Sequence record: OM386662.1 | Strand: one strand, 5' to 3' | From: Escherichia phage vB_EcoM_ESCO47 | Length of the DNA stretch: 64,000 nt | Shown here: positions 4,323-48,170 of the stretch, one piece after another | Position numbering within the stretch: position 1 is the first letter of the stretch | Layout of the letters: the number at the start of each line of letters is the position of its first letter | The notes under the pieces: generated by a model | Told to the model about the DNA's origin: nothing | Databases searched by the model: none | What the model saw: only the letters and a program-made list of their open reading frames with translations | Position numbers and translations under genes: made by a program

Positions 4323-5305
4323 GAACTGTTATGAAGGGCTATTTTGGCTCACATCTTTATGGAACTAGTACGCCAGAATCTGACGTTGATTTTAAAGAAA
4401 TTTATGTCCCTCATGCTCGTGATATCTTGACCGGTAACGTTAAAGAACATATGAGCAAGAACACGAATAACACATCTTCTAAGAACACAAAAGACGACGT
4501 GGACCATGAGTTGTATAGTCTCAAATATTTCTTTAAACTAGCTGCGGACGGCGAAACCGTCGCATTAGATATGCTTCACACTCCACAAAGTCTAGTAGTT
4601 AAATCTGATTTGCCTGATGTATGGAAGTATATTCAAGATAACAGGTCTCGTTTCTATACAACTAACATGAAATCTTATTTAGGGTATGTCCGTAAGCAAG
4701 CTTCCAAATATGGTGTTAAGGGTTCTCGATTGGCTGTTCTTCGTCAAGCCCTTAAACGTTCTAATGAACGGGGACAATACTTTGATAATGGTGCAGTAAT
4801 TCGTTTATCACATATGAAGAATGTTCTGCCTGTAGGTGAATTTGCTTCGTGGGTTGAAACCGAAAACGAGAAAACAGGTAAGCAAACATTCTATAATCTG
4901 TTAGACCGTAAATTCCAAGACACGTTAACCAATAAAGAGTTCAATGCCATCCTGGTTAAACTGGAAGAGAACTATGGTGAACGTGCTCGTAAGGCGGAAG
5001 CCAACGAAGGTATTGACTGGAAAGCATTGAGTCATGCATGTCGTGGTGGACTTCAACTATTGGAAATTTACAAAACCGGCGACCTGGTTTACCCACTTCA
5101 GGATGCTCCATTTATTCTCGATGTTAAGCTTGGTAAACATACATTTAAAACTGTACAAGAATTCCTAGAAGATATCGTTGACCAAGTTGAACAAGCATCA
5201 GAACAAGCCGCTAAGAACGGTATGCAACAAAAAGTAGATATGAGTTTCTGGGATGATTTCCTTGAGCAAGTCTATCTCGAAAATCATAATTCTTACTATA
5301 AATAG
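4319..5305 (+). CDS. Predicted Pol-beta-fold nucleotidyltransferase-like protein
   Basis: GSHLYGTSTPESDVDF matches the hG[GS]...D.D minimal nucleotidyltransferase motif. Confidence 0.45.
   Translation: MRTVMKGYFGSHLYGTSTPESDVDFKEIYVPHARDILTGNVKEHMSKNTNNTSSKNTKDDVDHELYSLKYFFKLAADGETVALDMLHTPQSLVVKSDLPDVWKYIQDNRSRFYTTNMKSYLGYVRKQASKYGVKGSRLAVLRQALKRSNERGQYFDNGAVIRLSHMKNVLPVGEFASWVETENEKTGKQTFYNLLDRKFQDTLTNKEFNAILVKLEENYGERARKAEANEGIDWKALSHACRGGLQLLEIYKTGDLVYPLQDAPFILDVKLGKHTFKTVQEFLEDIVDQVEQASEQAAKNGMQQKVDMSFWDDFLEQVYLENHNSYYK
5297..5304 (+). promoter_or_regulatory. Late-promoter-like TATAAATA box
   Basis: Exact TATAAATA about 29 nt upstream of ATG 5333. Confidence 0.3.
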
Positions 5306-5332
5306 ATAAATAACTCTTAACTTGAGGTAAAT

Positions 5333-5614
5333 ATGAAAAAATTAGTAATTGGTTTATTTGCAGTAATGATGGCGTTCTCTGTTGGTGCTACCACGGGTGC
5401 TACCAGCGGTAGTGCAGGCGCTGGTGGTAACCAGTCTTCTGGGCCTTCCAATGGTTCGGTAAATGCGTCACATTCTCAGGGTATTGAGAACATTAAATCA
5501 AGCTATATTAATAGCACGGCCGGACAAGCAACTGAAGCATGGTCAAAGGGTCGAGTAGTTACTCGCTCCGTATTCTGTGATATGCCTAATTATGTTGCTA
5601 AGTGCGATAAGTAA
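5333..5614 (+). CDS. Secreted Gly/Ser/Asn-rich small protein
   Basis: Signal peptide MKKLVIGLFAVMMAFSVGA then low-complexity G/S/N stretch; two C-terminal Cys. Confidence 0.5.
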   Translation: MKKLVIGLFAVMMAFSVGATTGATSGSAGAGGNQSSGPSNGSVNASHSQGIENIKSSYINSTAGQATEAWSKGRVVTRSVFCDMPNYVAKCDK

Positions 5615-11130: not shown

Positions 11131-11160
11131 GTTTACAACGACGAAGAAACATGTTATGAT
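11131..11160 (+). promoter_or_regulatory. T4-type early promoter
   Basis: GTTTAC, 18-nt spacer, TATGAT; preceded by an 8-bp inverted repeat at about 11092-11117. Confidence 0.45.
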
Positions 11161-11200: not shown

Positions 11201-11614
11201 ATGAATATTTCTGAAACTCGCGGTAAATGGTTCAAGATTGTTAAAGAAGATGAAGAACTACAAGCCAAGTTTCCTGAATTAAAGAAAGGAACAATCATCA
11301 AGGTAATTGGTATTTCAACAACGGCTGACCTGTCTGGTGGCATCGTTGAAGTGATGTTGTCTACTGGCGAGAAACTTTGCATCAACGACCGTGATATTGG
11401 TTTTTGGTGTTTCTGGGAATCTGATTCAATAGATGAACTCGAAGAAATTGACCAAGTAGTTCGTGACAGTGAACTACTTGGTGAATTCGAAGGGGAACGT
11501 ATTTCTTATGCTTTAGCTAAATTAGCCGCACAAGAAAATAATGACGGCTATGAAGGTAATCTGATGCAAGCCGCAGCGGAATACATTGAATATTTAGAAA
11601 GACGTTTAAGTTAA
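11201..11614 (+). CDS. Hypothetical acidic protein
   Basis: ORF-track 11183 start is TTG; ATG at 11201 has GGAG at good spacing. Confidence 0.45.
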   Translation: MNISETRGKWFKIVKEDEELQAKFPELKKGTIIKVIGISTTADLSGGIVEVMLSTGEKLCINDRDIGFWCFWESDSIDELEEIDQVVRDSELLGEFEGERISYALAKLAAQENNDGYEGNLMQAAAEYIEYLERRLS

Positions 11615-11623
11615 AGGTTTATT

Positions 11624-11803
11624 ATGAAAACTGAATTATTTTATGGCGAAAGAAAAAATGGACAAAAATCCTGGAAATTTGTTATGACTGGGGCTCCAAA
11701 CAATCCGACTATGGCTACTTCAATTATTTCAGTAACACGTCCTACTAAGAAAATGATTCGTCAATATAAACGTTTTCATCGAGACTTTTATAACGTTTAC
11801 TAA
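11624..11803 (+). CDS. Small ORF (59 aa)
   Basis: Just below ORF-track cutoff; fills gap before gene 49. Confidence 0.3.
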   Translation: MKTELFYGERKNGQKSWKFVMTGAPNNPTMATSIISVTRPTKKMIRQYKRFHRDFYNVY

Positions 11804-11805
11804 AT

Positions 11806-11837
11806 TATAAATACCCTTATCTATTTAAGGTAAGGGT
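11806..11837 (+). promoter_or_regulatory. Late-promoter-like TATAAATA box plus hairpin covering the gene 49 ribosome-binding site
   Basis: TATAAATA 11806-11813; ACCCTTA/TAAGGGT stem 11813-11837 spans the AAGG/AGGG upstream of ATG 11843. Confidence 0.45.
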
Positions 11838-11842
11838 TTATC

Positions 11843-12316
11843 ATGTTATTATCAGGCGCAAAATATAAAGAAGAAAAACAAAAATTTTATGATGCACAGA
11901 ATGGTAAGTGTCCTATTTGCCACCGTGAATTAGACCCTGATGTTCAAGGTAACCATCTTGACCACGACCACGAATTAAACGGGCCAAAAGCCGGTAGAGT
12001 TCGTGGATTACTCTGTAATCTGTGCAACGCAGCAGAAGGTCAAATGAAGCATAAGTTCAACCGTTCCGGTCTTAAAGGCTGTGATGTCGACTACCTAGAA
12101 TGGCTTGAAGCTCTTCTTGCTTATTTGAAACAAGATTATTCTGATAATAATATCCATCCTAATTTTGTTCCAGACAAAACTAAAGAGTTCTCAAGACTAT
12201 GTAAAGAGGAAATGATGGCTGAGATGCTTCAAAGAGGATTTGAATATAATGAATCTGATACTAAAACACAATTAATAGCTTCATTCAAAAAGCAGCTTAG
12301 AAAGAGTTTAAAATGA
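11843..12316 (+). CDS. 49: Endonuclease VII (Holliday-junction resolvase)
   Basis: 157 aa; CPICHREL...HLDHDHEL...CNLCN zinc/HNH-like motifs as in T4 gp49. Confidence 0.85.
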   Translation: MLLSGAKYKEEKQKFYDAQNGKCPICHRELDPDVQGNHLDHDHELNGPKAGRVRGLLCNLCNAAEGQMKHKFNRSGLKGCDVDYLEWLEALLAYLKQDYSDNNIHPNFVPDKTKEFSRLCKEEMMAEMLQRGFEYNESDTKTQLIASFKKQLRKSLK

Positions 12317-17915: not shown

Positions 17916-17944
17916 AGACCTATGAATTGAGCCAAGAGGTACTT

Positions 17945-18505
17945 ATGACTAATGTAAAGTTAACCAAAAATAACTATGTAAATAACAAAGAGCTTCTCGC
18001 TGCTATAACGGAGTGGAAAAAGGAGCTCCTAAATAATAAAGACCATAATAAAATTGTTCGACAGAATGATACAATAGGGTTGGCAATTATGCTAATTGCT
18101 GAAGGTCTCTCTAAACGTTTTAACTTTTCAGGATACACCCAGTCTTGGAAACAAGAAATGATTGCCGACGGAATTGAAGCTTCTATTAAAGGACTTCATA
18201 ATTTTGATGAGACTAAATACACTAACCCACATGCATACATAACTCAAGCTTGTTTTAATGCTTTTGTCCAACGTATCAAAAAAGAGCGTAAGGAAGTTGC
18301 AAAGAAATATAGTTACTTCGTTCATAATGTCTATGACAGCCATGACGATGATATGGTAGCGTTGGTAGATGAAACCTTTATTCAGGACATTTACGATAAA
18401 ATGACGCATTACGAAGAATCTGCTTATAAAGCTCCTGGGGCTGAAAAGAAGGAAACTGTTCGCGATTCACCAAGTTTGGATTTTTTATATGAGGACGACA
18501 ATTGA
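17945..18505 (+). CDS. 55: Late-transcription sigma factor gp55
   Basis: 186 aa from MTNVKL after GAGGT; [12 protein letters not shown]...EWKKEL region matches my recollection of T4 gp55. Confidence 0.8.
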
Positions 18506-20615: not shown

Positions 20616-20841
20616 TTATGAAATCCATCGTCATGAATTTAGTATTGATGACGGTTATATTGGTGTCGTTGAATGGACTGAGAATTACGAGGAGACAACT
20701 CCTCGTTTCTTTGGAACAATGTATGTTACCTGTGAGTACGCACCGGGTGTTGTTATGTATGCAGAACTAGATGAATATTTTGCTGATAGAGATGACATGT
20801 TAAAATATGTAGAGGACTTCATTCGAAGAGAATACATATGA
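20593..20841 (+). CDS. Hypothetical protein
   Basis: 82-aa ORF. Confidence 0.45.
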   Translation: MRIMTKTDYEIHRHEFSIDDGYIGVVEWTENYEETTPRFFGTMYVTCEYAPGVVMYAELDEYFADRDDMLKYVEDFIRREYI

Positions 20842-22526
20842 AATCATTTAAATTAAATCGTGTTCGTTATAAAAATATAATGTCTGTTGGGCAAAATTTT
20901 ATCGATATCCAATTAGATAAAGTCCAAAAGACCTTAATCACAGGTAAAAATGGTGGTGGTAAATCTACGATGTTAGAAGCCATCACTTTTGGACTTTTCG
21001 GCAAACCATTTCGTGATGTTAAGAAAGGACAAATCATTAATAGCACGAACAAGAAAGAGCTCTTAGTTGAGCTTTGGATGGAATTCGATGATAAAAAATA
21101 CTTCATCAAACGAGGTCAAAAGCCCAATATTTTCGAAATCTCCGTTGACGGTGTTCGTCTCGATGAATCTGCCAGCAGTCGTGACTTCCAAGAAGAATTT
21201 GAACGTAGCATCGGAATGTCCTATGCGTCTTTTAAACAAATCGTCGTTCTTGGTACAGCAGGGTATACCCCTTTCATGGCTCTTAGCACCCCAGCTCGTA
21301 GAAAACTTGTCGAAGACCTTTTAGAAGTCGGCACACTCGCTGAAATGGATAAAATCAATAAGTCTCAAGTTCGCGAACTTAATTCCCGGGGGCAAGTTCT
21401 CGATGCCAAGAAAGATGGTGTTATCCAACAAATTAAGATTTATAATGAGAATATCGAACGTCAAAAGAAATTATCCGGTGATAATGTAGCTCGTCTACAG
21501 AATATGTATGATGACCTGGCTAAAGAAGCTCGGTCATTAAAAGCAGAAATCGAAGAAGCTAATGAGCGACTACTTAATATCGTTCTTGACGAAGACCCTA
21601 CTGAGGCATTCAACAAGATAGGACAAGAAGCATTATTGATTAAATCTAAAATTGACTCATATAACAAAGTTATTAAGATGTATCATGACGGCGGTACATG
21701 TCCTACTTGTGCATCACAGTTGCACCAGGGTGATCCTATTGTCTCTAAGATTACCGATAAGCTTCATGAATGTAATCACTCATTCGAGCAACTTACCTGT
21801 CACAGAGATAATCTGAGTGTCCTAGTGGACGAATATAGAGCTAATGTTAAGACTAAACAGGACCTTGCATCTGATATTCGTACCAAGAAACAAGCAATGA
21901 TTGCCACTATTGATAAAGCTAAGAAAGTTAAAGCTGCAATAGAGCAAGCCTCAGCAGAATTTATCGACCATGCCGATGAGATAGCTTTGCTTCAAAAAGA
22001 ACTTGATAAAATCATTAAAACAAAATCGGATATCGTTCTTGAAAAATACCATCGTGGTATTATCACAGATATGTTAAAAGATTCTGGTATTAAAGGTGCT
22101 ATCATTAAAAAATATGTGCCTCTGTTCAACAAGCAGATTAACCATTACCTTAAAATCATGGAAGCTGATTACGTGTTTTCTATTGATGAAGAATTCAATG
22201 AATCTATAAAATCCCGTGGTCGTGAAGATTTTAGTTATGCTTCATTTAGCCAAGGTGAAAAAGCACGTATTGATATCGCTTTATTGTTCACATGGCGAGA
22301 TATTGCTGAAAAGGTTTCTGGTGTTAGAATCAATACATTAATTATGGACGAAGTCATGGATTCCGCGACTGATTCTGAAGGTATTAAAGCTATTTCAACA
22401 ATTCTTAACTCTCTAACCGATGCAAACGTGTTTATAATTAGTCACAGAGACCATGACCCACAAGCTTATGGACAACATCTTCAAATGAGCAAAGTTGGAC
22501 GATTTACTGTAATGAAAGCCTCTTAA
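20838..22526 (+). CDS. 46: Recombination ATPase gp46 (Rad50/SbcC-like)
   Basis: 562 aa; Walker A GKNGGGKST, CPTC zinc hook, C-terminal LIMDEV Walker B. Confidence 0.9.
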   Translation: MKSFKLNRVRYKNIMSVGQNFIDIQLDKVQKTLITGKNGGGKSTMLEAITFGLFGKPFRDVKKGQIINSTNKKELLVELWMEFDDKKYFIKRGQKPNIFEISVDGVRLDESASSRDFQEEFERSIGMSYASFKQIVVLGTAGYTPFMALSTPARRKLVEDLLEVGTLAEMDKINKSQVRELNSRGQVLDAKKDGVIQQIKIYNENIERQKKLSGDNVARLQNMYDDLAKEARSLKAEIEEANERLLNIVLDEDPTEAFNKIGQEALLIKSKIDSYNKVIKMYHDGGTCPTCASQLHQGDPIVSKITDKLHECNHSFEQLTCHRDNLSVLVDEYRANVKTKQDLASDIRTKKQAMIATIDKAKKVKAAIEQASAEFIDHADEIALLQKELDKIIKTKSDIVLEKYHRGIITDMLKDSGIKGAIIKKYVPLFNKQINHYLKIMEADYVFSIDEEFNESIKSRGREDFSYASFSQGEKARIDIALLFTWRDIAEKVSGVRINTLIMDEVMDSATDSEGIKAISTILNSLTDANVFIISHRDHDPQAYGQHLQMSKVGRFTVMKAS

Positions 22527-23239
22527 TGAGGCTTATGTTTACAGTTATCAAAATGCCAACGATGCATATTAGCAGGGATCCCTATTTTATCGCAATGAGG
22601 ACATTTAATTTTCTTGTCCTCTTTTTTCTTTCTGTTAGGATTTGATTTACAGAATTTTATATGCGGCTTTAACGCCGATAACTTAGTAGTTAAGCCACAA
22701 AACGGGCAAGAATCTTCTTTCCAAATTTTCGTGGCCATGGTTTTAATTATTTTATCCTTTGTTTCTTGATCAAGTTTTACTATTTTAGGCGTAGGGCCTT
22801 GTTTACAGTTATCAAAATGCCAACGTCTCATGTTTCCTTCAGTGCCAGTTAAACCGCAGTGTGGACATGTAATCTTTGGTTTATTTTTTGCAGACTCGGA
22901 CATTTTCTTACGAGTTTCAGCAGTGAATTCTTTGTTCTTTTGAACTTCTTGATTCTTACGTCGAAGCCATCCAAATAATTTGTTTTTGCTTCTATCTGCT
23001 TTAGGAGATGAGATAGTCATCATACGAGCAGCATATATTAAAGAGGCATTATCTGGATGGATTTTTACTAGCAGTTGATGTGCCAAATAATGTTCTTCTG
23101 GTGTTAAATCTACTAAGTTTAAAGCATCATCACTTCCACCTAAACATTGTGGTATAATGTAATGACGTTCTGTATAACCATCTAAACTTCTTGATTTAGC
23201 ATTGGTGATAAGCTTTTCGTATATTGAGTTATAATTCAT
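22523..23239 (-). CDS. Free-standing HNH homing endonuclease with three C-terminal zinc-finger-like repeats
   Basis: HYIIPQCLGGSDDALNLVDLTPEEHYLAHQL HNH motif; three CP(H/F)CG...H(F/I)...CK repeats; only sizeable minus-strand gene in the block. Confidence 0.65.
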   Translation of the reverse strand: MNYNSIYEKLITNAKSRSLDGYTERHYIIPQCLGGSDDALNLVDLTPEEHYLAHQLLVKIHPDNASLIYAARMMTISSPKADRSKNKLFGWLRRKNQEVQKNKEFTAETRKKMSESAKNKPKITCPHCGLTGTEGNMRRWHFDNCKQGPTPKIVKLDQETKDKIIKTMATKIWKEDSCPFCGLTTKLSALKPHIKFCKSNPNRKKKEDKKIKCPHCDKIGIPANMHRWHFDNCKHKPH

Positions 23240-23293
23240 TTACTAAATCCTTATTTGATACAGCAACAGATAAATTGATAAACCTATTTATAT

Positions 23294-23938: not shown

Positions 23939-23987
23939 TATTTTTGATATAAAATAAACTTCTTGATTTGAATTGAAAGGAAATAAA

Positions 23988-24674
23988 ATGAAACTGACTA
24001 AAGACACCATCGCTATTCTTAAAAACTTTGCTTCCATTAACTCTGGTGTCATGCTTACTCCAGGTAAGTTTATTATGACTCGGGCTATTAACGGAACCAC
24101 ATATGCTGAAGCAACTATTACTGACGAAATTGATTTTGAAGTTGCTCTTTATGACCTTAACAGTTTTTTAAGTATTCTGAGTCTTGTTTCTGATGATGCA
24201 GAAATTTCTATGAATGAAGACGGTAATATTAAAATCGCCGACACTCGTTCTACTGTTTACTGGCCAGCCGCAGACAAGAGTACAATCGTATTCCCTAACA
24301 AACCAATTCAGTTCCCGGTAGCATCGGTTATCACTGAAATTAAAGCTGAAGACCTTCAGCAATTGCTTCGAGTTTCACGTGGACTCCAGATCGATACAAT
24401 TGCTATCACTAATAAAGATGGTAAAATCGTTGTAAATGGTTATAACAAAGTTGAAGACTCTGGTCTTACTCGTCCTAAGTATTCTTTGACTCTGACTGAT
24501 TATGATGGTTCTAATAACTTCAACTTTGTAATCAATATGGCTAACATGAAAATTCAACCAGGCAATTACAAAGTTATGCTCTGGGGAGCTGGTGATAAAG
24601 TTGCAGCCAAGTTCGAAAGCTCTCAAGTTAGTTATGTTATTGCAATGGAAGCTGATTCCACTCACGATTTCTAA
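23988..24674 (+). CDS. 45: Sliding clamp gp45
   Basis: 228 aa from MKLTKDT; same length as T4 gp45. Confidence 0.85.
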   Translation: MKLTKDTIAILKNFASINSGVMLTPGKFIMTRAINGTTYAEATITDEIDFEVALYDLNSFLSILSLVSDDAEISMNEDGNIKIADTRSTVYWPAADKSTIVFPNKPIQFPVASVITEIKAEDLQQLLRVSRGLQIDTIAITNKDGKIVVNGYNKVEDSGLTRPKYSLTLTDYDGSNNFNFVINMANMKIQPGNYKVMLWGAGDKVAAKFESSQVSYVIAMEADSTHDF

Positions 24675-44182: not shown

Positions 44183-44190
44183 TATAAATA
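44183..44190 (+). promoter_or_regulatory. Late-promoter TATAAATA box upstream of soc
   Basis: Exact TATAAATA about 29 nt upstream of soc ATG. Confidence 0.4.
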
Positions 44191-44218
44191 CACCTGTAAT
44201 TAACTAAAGGAGTAAATT

Positions 44219-44470
44219 ATGGGTGGATATGTAAATATCAAAACGTTCGACCATGAAGTAGCAGGTGGTACAGTAGAAGGTACCGAGGTTTCTGTTGCAT
44301 TTGAAGTTTATTCTAATGCTCATCGAATCTCAGGTGCGCACTATCAGACTTTCCCGTCTGAAGAACCAGCCTATGATACTGTGGTTGACACCGCAGATGA
44401 TTGGGCAACAGCAAATGAAGCTATGTTTACCCCAGAACCTGCACCGGTTCCTCCAGGACCCGGTGCATAA
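44219..44470 (+). CDS. soc: Small outer capsid protein Soc
   Basis: 83 aa; GYVNIKTF...ISGAHYQTFPSE matches my recollection of T4 Soc. Confidence 0.8.
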   Translation: MGGYVNIKTFDHEVAGGTVEGTEVSVAFEVYSNAHRISGAHYQTFPSEEPAYDTVVDTADDWATANEAMFTPEPAPVPPGPGA

Positions 44471-46332: not shown

Positions 46333-46511
46333 TGGATTTAATGAGCATGTTTGATGAGCCTGAAGTTGAGGCTCCTAAAGCACAACGTGGAGAACTCGTT
46401 GACGAACTGGACATTATTATACAGCGTCACGGGTTTAATCTTCCTATAGAAGTCCTGAAAGACCTAGCGTCTTACTACGATGATCCACCTCCTTGGGCCC
46501 CTTGGTCATAA
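46332..46511 (+). CDS. Small acidic ORF (59 aa)
   Basis: TAATG coupling; below ORF-track cutoff. Confidence 0.3.
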   Translation: MDLMSMFDEPEVEAPKAQRGELVDELDIIIQRHGFNLPIEVLKDLASYYDDPPPWAPWS

Positions 46512-47417: not shown

Positions 47418-48170
47418 ATGAAATTATCAAACATCCAAATCAAGAAAATCGAACGTCGTTTAGATCACACCAGAGCTTCTGCAAAGAGGCGCTCTAAGGA
47501 TTTTAACTTAGACTTTAATTACCTTAAAAACATTCTTGATCAAAAGGTCTGCGCTTACTCAGGTGAAACCTTTGATAACAAGGTTGAAGGTGAGAAATTA
47601 TCCTTAGAACGTTTTAATAACGATATCGGTTACATTAAAGGTAACGTTATTCCTGTCAAGAAAAAATATAACGCAGCACGTTCAGATTTTACTTTAGCCG
47701 AACTCATCGAGAAACGTGAAATAATCGCTGGACGTATCGCTACTCCTAGCGCAAAGAAAGTTGAAAAGCTTAATCTCGATGAAAAGAAATGGGCTGAAAT
47801 CAAACACACTTATACACAAATTAAAAATATCCAAAACAAACGTAAGAGCCGTATCGATCATATTGAAAAAATGACTAAAGGTAAAAGCACCTTATCTAAA
47901 GAAGACCAATTAAAAGTTGTCGGATTAAAAGCCCGCATCGATGGTTCCAGAGTTGCCGAAGGACGTGAAGTAACAAAGTTAAATGTTCTTCTTAAAGGTT
48001 CTGATTGGAAAACTAAAACCAAGTTATCCGACGCAGAAACGCTTTTTGATACATATGATAAAGTTATCCAAGGATTACAACGTTTCGAAAAGATTGGTTT
48101 CATCGGTAAATTAAAATTGAAACGTGGTTTACCACTTAACACTTCTATCTTTAAATTGATTAAAGGTTGA
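47418..48170 (+). CDS. Basic 250-aa protein in the T4 srd position
   Basis: Positional only; Lys/Arg-rich. Confidence 0.35.
   Translation: MKLSNIQIKKIERRLDHTRASAKRRSKDFNLDFNYLKNILDQKVCAYSGETFDNKVEGEKLSLERFNNDIGYIKGNVIPVKKKYNAARSDFTLAELIEKREIIAGRIATPSAKKVEKLNLDEKKWAEIKHTYTQIKNIQNKRKSRIDHIEKMTKGKSTLSKEDQLKVVGLKARIDGSRVAEGREVTKLNVLLKGSDWKTKTKLSDAETLFDTYDKVIQGLQRFEKIGFIGKLKLKRGLPLNTSIFKLIKG

Follow-up and report, generated by a model that had tools for sequence, protein, structure and literature searches.

A late promoter box and a ribosome-binding-site hairpin upstream of gene 49 in a T-even-type phage

Gene 49, encoding recombination endonuclease VII, is preceded by co-oriented genes, raising the question of how synthesis of the nuclease is timed if transcripts of those genes run into it. 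We addressed this question in a 64,000-nt stretch of Escherichia phage vB_EcoM_ESCO47 (OM386662.1), hereafter the window, which comes from a T-even-type phage of the RB69 group (Mosigvirus) and is 98.8% identical to GADS24 over 11600-12000. The 157-aa product of gene 49 (11843..12316, plus strand; Pfam Endonuclease_7, 6e-20, and Endonuc-dimeris, 2e-31) is 88% identical to T4-type gp49, and the gene begins with an ATG at 11843. Upstream lie pin and then a co-oriented 59-aa ORF (11624..11803, plus strand; DUF7279, phrog_3272), a homolog of RB69ORF087c, leaving a gap of 39 nt before gene 49. Transcripts crossing the 11624-11803 ORF would include the full hairpin described below. When early and MotA-type middle promoters were sought upstream in the window, only weak sigma-70-like candidates were seen (e.g. 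11132-11160), none of which we claim as a promoter; in RB69, an early promoter, Pe:48639, is predicted ~0.9 kb upstream. A scan for plus-strand terminator-like sites between 9545 and 11843 made no calls.

The late promoter box and the hairpin over the Shine-Dalgarno sequence

Beginning 2 nt after the end of the DUF7279 ORF, the gap contains TATAAATA (11806..11813, plus strand), a perfect match to the T4-type late promoter element as defined by the published consensus (Nolan et al., 2006, PMC1524935), which as the -13 to -6 element would be read by gp55-RNA polymerase. T4 late promoters do not need a -35 element, and since the published geometry sets the box at -13 to -6 (PMC1524935), this rule predicts a late start at A11819 (plus strand), the sixth nucleotide past the box, within the 5´ arm of a hairpin. 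The initial annotation had reported both the box and its overlap with the 5´ arm, and both are exact in the sequence: the last A of the box (11813) is the first base of the arm.

On folding, the hairpin consists of a 5´ arm, ACCCUUAUCU (11813..11822), a 5-nt loop, AUUUA (11823..11827), which varies in length and sequence among relatives, and a 3´ arm, AGGUAAGGGU (11828..11837), all on the plus strand. The arm positions of the stem originally proposed at 11813-11837, ACCCTTA (11813-11819) with TAAGGGT (11831-11837), are exact, but its length of 7 bp is not, as U11820.G11830, C11821-G11829 and U11822-A11828 extend the stem to 10 bp. The sequestration of the gene 49 Shine-Dalgarno (SD) sequence, also part of the original proposal, holds. 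The best anti-SD match, UAAGGGU (11831-11837; duplex -4.8 kcal/mol), 5 nt before the AUG, lies entirely in the 3´ arm and is 100% paired in the early-type fold. The stem here covers the SD and not the AUG; in many relatives the AUG is covered as well. The folding energy of the 40-nt element is -12.9 kcal/mol compared to -4.9 ± 2.0 kcal/mol for shuffled sequences (z = -4.1), none of 200 shuffles being as good, and ~1% of 40-nt segments in the 64-kb window fold equally well.

All RNAs with starts at 11783 or farther upstream retained the hairpin. It was lost from a late-type RNA starting at 11819, which would not carry 11813-11818 and whose leader has a minimum free energy of -1.5 kcal/mol. The difference between early and late 5´ ends (-12.9 vs -1.5 kcal/mol) agrees with the suggestion in the initial annotation that long RNAs could fold the hairpin whereas RNAs starting in the stem could not. 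The predicted cost of opening the SD was ~8.7 kcal/mol in early-type RNA compared to ~2.9 kcal/mol with starts at 11818-11821, with modest alternative SD pairing (2.9 kcal/mol) predicted to remain in late-type RNA, and the cost of opening the ribosome site from -15 to +5 was ~14 kcal/mol compared to ~5.3 kcal/mol with the same late starts.

We consider it very probable that gene 49 is controlled by a T4-type translational switch in which a late promoter lies inside a hairpin that sequesters the ribosome-binding site (RBS), with the actual start site, the read-through early RNA and the strength of the effect on translation inferred or carried over by analogy with T4. Before replication, early and middle transcripts from upstream promoters would cross the co-oriented pin and ORF087c genes into gene 49. 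Carrying both arms, these RNAs would form the 10-bp hairpin at 11813-11837, hiding the SD and making 30S binding poor, and little endonuclease VII would be made while replication and recombination intermediates accumulate. Late in infection, RNA polymerase modified by gp55, gp33 and gp45 would be directed by TATAAATA at 11806-11813 to start at about A11819; the resulting RNAs, lacking 11813-11818, would be unable to form the stem and would be translated, such that the nuclease would be ready for debranching DNA before packaging. The putative trans-acting reader of the box, gp55 (17927..18505, plus strand; phrog_234 'late sigma transcription factor', 4e-68), and the gp45 sliding clamp (23973..24674, plus strand; Pfam gp45-slide_C, 3e-43, and DNA_PPF, 5e-24), whose role as a T4-type late transcription co-activator is stated in PMC1524935, are both encoded within the 64-kb window; gp33 is not in it.

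The TATAAATA octamer is not enriched in the 64-kb window, with five copies found and 7.2 ± 2.8 expected from shuffles. All four plus-strand copies are within ~30 nt upstream of an SD-ATG (box end to start codon), and two of the four, at gene 49 and soc, adjoin an RBS-covering hairpin that ranks in the top 1%. The combination of a box with an RBS hairpin exceeds chance, whereas the box alone does not.

Comparison with T4 and RB69

The T4 gene 49 mechanism was reportedly worked out by Barth, Powell, Trupin and Mosig in 1988, at Genetics 120:329. In T4, the SD and/or AUG of genes e, soc, 49 and I-TevI are in a helix that is bypassed by late promoters (PMC3014915, section 29), and the gene 49 precedent named in the initial annotation is real; the class of late promoters in hairpins has been described with citation of Barth et al., 1988 (PMC2988022). 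As for gene 49, longer early or middle RNAs of e, soc and I-TevI fold a helix that hides the SD or AUG, with the late promoter in or at its 5´ strand, and these too are late genes placed in early regions, although their sequences are unrelated to the gene 49 leader. The effects for gene e (100-fold) and I-TevI have been measured, whereas the gene 49 effect here is predicted. Like the members of this class, the locus has a stable helix in which the SD is paired on upstream-initiated RNA. It also shares with them a late start inside the 5´ strand giving helix-free late RNA, as predicted by the start-site rule here and for all 35 leaders described below, and the compensatory maintenance of the helix, with divergent lineages keeping the hairpin with different arms.

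The T4 gene 49 leader has the same hairpin, ACCCUUAUCU-AUUUA-AGGUAAGGGU, with the SD in the 3´ arm, and the same box-to-ATG distance of 37 nt, and the gene there also follows co-oriented early genes. The T4 box, which is the sole box within 700 nt upstream, is AATAAATA compared to TATAAATA here, and the counterpart of the predicted late start would be at ~46879 of NC_000866 (minus strand); T4 start sites from dRNA-seq are reported in a preprint (10.1101/2024.04.04.588121). The 32-nt stretch covering the box and hairpin is the same in the two phages except for the first base of the box, whereas the surrounding alignment is ~81% identical, and the spacer before the AUG ends in C here and in U in T4. 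The 59-aa DUF7279 ORF found here between pin and gene 49 is absent from T4. The end of the 11624-11803 ORF has a homologous counterpart in the last ~15 codons of T4 pin, with the T4 homology starting near 11752. This comparison suggests a deletion or fusion at pin and the DUF7279 ORF in the T4 lineage that may have spared the box and hairpin.

T4 gene 49 also has an internal GUG at codon 53, the start of an annotated nested 105-aa CDS (NC_000866), whereas codon 53 here is GTT (11999-12001), leaving only the hairpin and promoter part of the arrangement conserved. Elsewhere, GTG at this codon was found only in one close relative (L007) and in three Aeh1-like loci, with GTT, GTA, GTC or ATT in most others. 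Because codon 53 is GTT and provides no internal GUG start, the T4 feature of two nested proteins is not carried over, and because the internal start is not conserved, the hairpin is likely conserved to keep the nuclease off early rather than to yield a short isoform.

The 3´ end of gene 49 contains a MotA-type middle promoter (TGCTTCA, 12225-12231; TATAAT, 12245-12250; predicted start A12258), which shares its MotA box, -10 hexamer and start base with T4 PnrdD. In T4, PnrdD is a mapped middle promoter inside gene 49 with a start at 46440 (Hinton review table, where the position is printed as '6440' and was taken to mean 46440 given its order in the list and the T4 sequence). Given the match of these three elements, nrdD appears to have its own promoter in the window.

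RB69 is identical in sequence over the stretch that begins at the upstream ORF end and includes the first codons of gene 49, and it has the same gene order (pin-ORF087c-49-nrdD), with no difference at the element itself. A late promoter, Pl:47792 (47750-47792, minus strand), has been predicted for this phage (Nolan et al., 2006, PMC1524935), and the interval includes the box at 47761-47768, just upstream of the gene 49 start at 47731. The published RB69 promoter and terminator are computational predictions, which were linked neither to each other nor to sequestration of the RBS. With the T4 gene 49 mechanism dating from 1988, a textbook class comprising e, soc and I-TevI, and the RB69 late promoter prediction already published, the gene 49 switch carries little weight as a discovery and is a correct rediscovery of a mechanism already known for T4.

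Conservation and covariation among relatives

Gene 49 loci were collected from IMG/VR (44 loci) and from GenBank (T4, GADS24, RB43, an Acinetobacter phage, a 44RR-like Aeromonas phage and an RB49-like Krischvirus), with gp49 identities from 97% down to 42%. Leaders were counted if they had xxTAAATA within 50 nt of the start codon, which gave 51 sources (the window and 50 loci) and 35 distinct leaders. The TAAATA core was invariant across the 51 gene 49 loci, with variation in the two preceding bases (TA, AA, GA, CA and others); position -13 is also poorly conserved in published late promoter analyses (PMC1524935). At the Aeh1-like loci the box reads CTAAATA, the late consensus motif specific to Aeh1 (Nolan et al., PMC1524935), and the gene 49 box appears to follow the late consensus of each lineage, as in this example.

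The initial annotation would have given up the idea if the hairpin were not conserved in relatives; it is kept, with covariation, across the 35 distinct leaders. In all of them (51 loci) the 5´ arm begins 0-2 nt before the end of the box, and the sixth nucleotide past the box is an A in 32 of the 35. The full leaders fold at -7.7 to -17.8 kcal/mol compared to only -0.6 to -4.3 kcal/mol from the predicted +1, and the 3´ arm covers the SD and/or AUG in every leader. The arms themselves are diverse, with the pairs CCCUUA/UAAGGG, GGUUCA/UGAACC, CUCUUA/UAAGAG, CAUUCA/UGAAUG, GAGUCA/UGACUC, GUCCUA/UAGGGC and CUAUCA/UGAUAG. For the 44RR-like Aeromonas phage L9-6 (L050, 960-1010), the arm AAGAGCAU, located after GTTAAATA, pairs with AUGCUCUU, which comprises the AUG and codons 2-3 and not the SD. 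In Vibrio phage F86 (L052, 900-990), where the gene preceding gene 49 is transcribed divergently, both box and hairpin are missing, a single case that is only suggestive.

In a plain MAFFT alignment of the box-to-ATG leaders, the extra 5-6-nt spacer of the T4/RB69 group put its 3´ arms out of register. For pair counting, the seed was cut at the stem, a covariance model was built from 17 leaders, and the leaders were aligned by fit to the structure. The model retrieved 40 loci (20 distinct rows); L037-L039, L042-L046, RB43, and the 44RR-like and Krischvirus leaders, which it did not reach, were analyzed by single-sequence folding only. Across the 20 distinct rows, 98.5% of cells were paired, with 33 double-change cells in four of the ten pairs. 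None of 500 shuffles reached the observed covariation score, and slid controls were 37-52% paired. The covarying pairs are at the equivalents of 11814-11816 and 11818, i.e. between the box and +1, and the predicted start site and an SD-like motif fall on the conserved AUCU/AGGU part of the stem. At 11820/11830, U.G pairing is invariant. A DNA cruciform or a minus-strand RNA was also considered and rejected, since the invariant U.G and the further wobble pairs in relatives fit a plus-strand RNA.

These comparisons bear on a chance reading, in which an octamer rich in A and T happens to lie next to an ordinary hairpin between two genes and neither serves regulation. Chance could account for an octamer no commoner than in shuffles and for a fold matched by ~68 regions of the window, but not readily for an invariant TAAATA, a fixed box-to-arm offset and 33 compensatory double changes at loci whose gp49 proteins are only 42-97% identical, nor for the near-identity to T4 over 32 nt in far less conserved surroundings. 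RNAalifold predicted the same ten pairs from the sequence-only (MAFFT) alignment of the leaders cut at the stem, which counters the concern that the covariation is an alignment artifact. We regard a chance juxtaposition as extremely improbable.

No Rfam family matches the hairpin, the single hit being a chance match far below threshold. We did not find covariation of the gene 49 hairpin reported, and the review comparison of that kind covers gene e only; the strong family-wide covariation support is a useful comparative by-product of this analysis.

Termination at the hairpin and other boxes in the window

The hairpin might instead be mainly the intrinsic terminator of an early pin/ORF087c unit, with gene 49 a late gene that has its own promoter in the 39-nt gap and the overlap with the RBS incidental. 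TransTerm called a terminator at 47738-47760 of RB69 ('49<--RB69ORF087c', 9 bp, confidence 98), where the sequence is identical to the window (PMC1524935). Phage NBG1 has a 'terminator' annotated at the hairpin, and a terminator feature is listed under the match for PhAPEC2 and G9062. The stem has four G-C pairs among its ten and GGG at its base, followed by UUUAUC; the U-tract, however, is short, with three consecutive U, and our terminator scan of the window made no call here. Across lineages, the 8 nt past the stem hold 0-5 U (only 0-2 in L041, L043, L046, L048 (RB43) and L050 (44RR-like)), such that the U-tract is not conserved with the stem, and RB43-, Aeh1- and 44RR-like phages and L041 keep the stem by compensatory changes without a U-tract. 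Termination also leaves unexplained the fixed box-to-arm offset and the constant coverage of the SD or AUG, and in the T4 literature the early RNA of gene 49 is present but untranslatable (PMC3014915). Efficient termination at the hairpin would let few early RNAs through to the RBS and would make a translational block redundant. Such termination would not starve the downstream genes given the nrdD middle promoter inside gene 49, and we dropped the opposing argument, that nrdD needs read-through of the hairpin, since PnrdD is conserved here. A role mainly as terminator is very unlikely in our estimation, and the automated 'terminator' labels that several GenBank records place on the gene 49 hairpin probably give an incomplete or misleading picture.

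In T-even-type phages the hairpin might serve two functions, as a partial terminator that also blocks translation of read-through RNA, with a late promoter bypassing both; this reading shares the evidence for the switch and for termination. The T4/RB69 group has gained a U-rich spacer of 5-6 nt between stem and AUG (UUUAUC or UUUAUU), which is missing in other lineages and makes the element more terminator-like, but this spacer may equally serve SD-AUG spacing, the SD having moved to the lower 3´ arm in this group. We consider such a dual function rather unlikely.

The translational switch is the reading we favor, and it tentatively extends further. The box and hairpin could possibly be an ancient module that compensatory changes have preserved at gene 49 across seven genera of the Straboviridae (Tequatro-, Mosig-, Krisch-, Pseudoteven- and Biquartavirus, and the Acinetobacter and Aeh1-like phages), with the box co-evolving with the gp55 specificity of each lineage and a U-rich tail gained in T-even-type phages, such that the hairpin there would combine a partial terminator, a translational lock and the housing of a late promoter. 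If so, the nested 12-kDa product would be a side effect peculiar to T4 and not what the hairpin is for.

A second box with an RBS hairpin is at soc. Here, a hairpin of -17 kcal/mol (ACACCUGUAAUU.../...AAAUUAUGGGUG) comes after TATAAATA (44183-44190) and lies over the SD, GGAG, and the AUG, the element as a whole covering 44183-44221. The soc ORF (44219-44470, ATG at 44219; Pfam Soc, 3e-23) is directly after a homolog of the gene 56 dCTPase, and the module matches the known regulation of T4 soc. Plus-strand TATAAATA boxes within 2313-2347 and 5297-5355 also precede an SD-ATG, with no stable hairpin (-3.4 and -2.2 kcal/mol, respectively). The leader at 2313 (TATAAATACTAATATCTAACTAAGAGGTG) resembles the gene 49 leader family, with a weak covariance-model match (23.6 bits, E = 0.65) and without complementary arms. 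On the minus strand, TATAAATA at 23285-23292 is 45 nt upstream of a homing-endonuclease ORF (22523-23239, minus strand; phrog_655, 3e-64). No strong leader hairpin was found at this box, which fits the orientation of the ORF against the direction of early transcription. The ORF is inserted between a large ORF (20838-22526) and the gp45 region.
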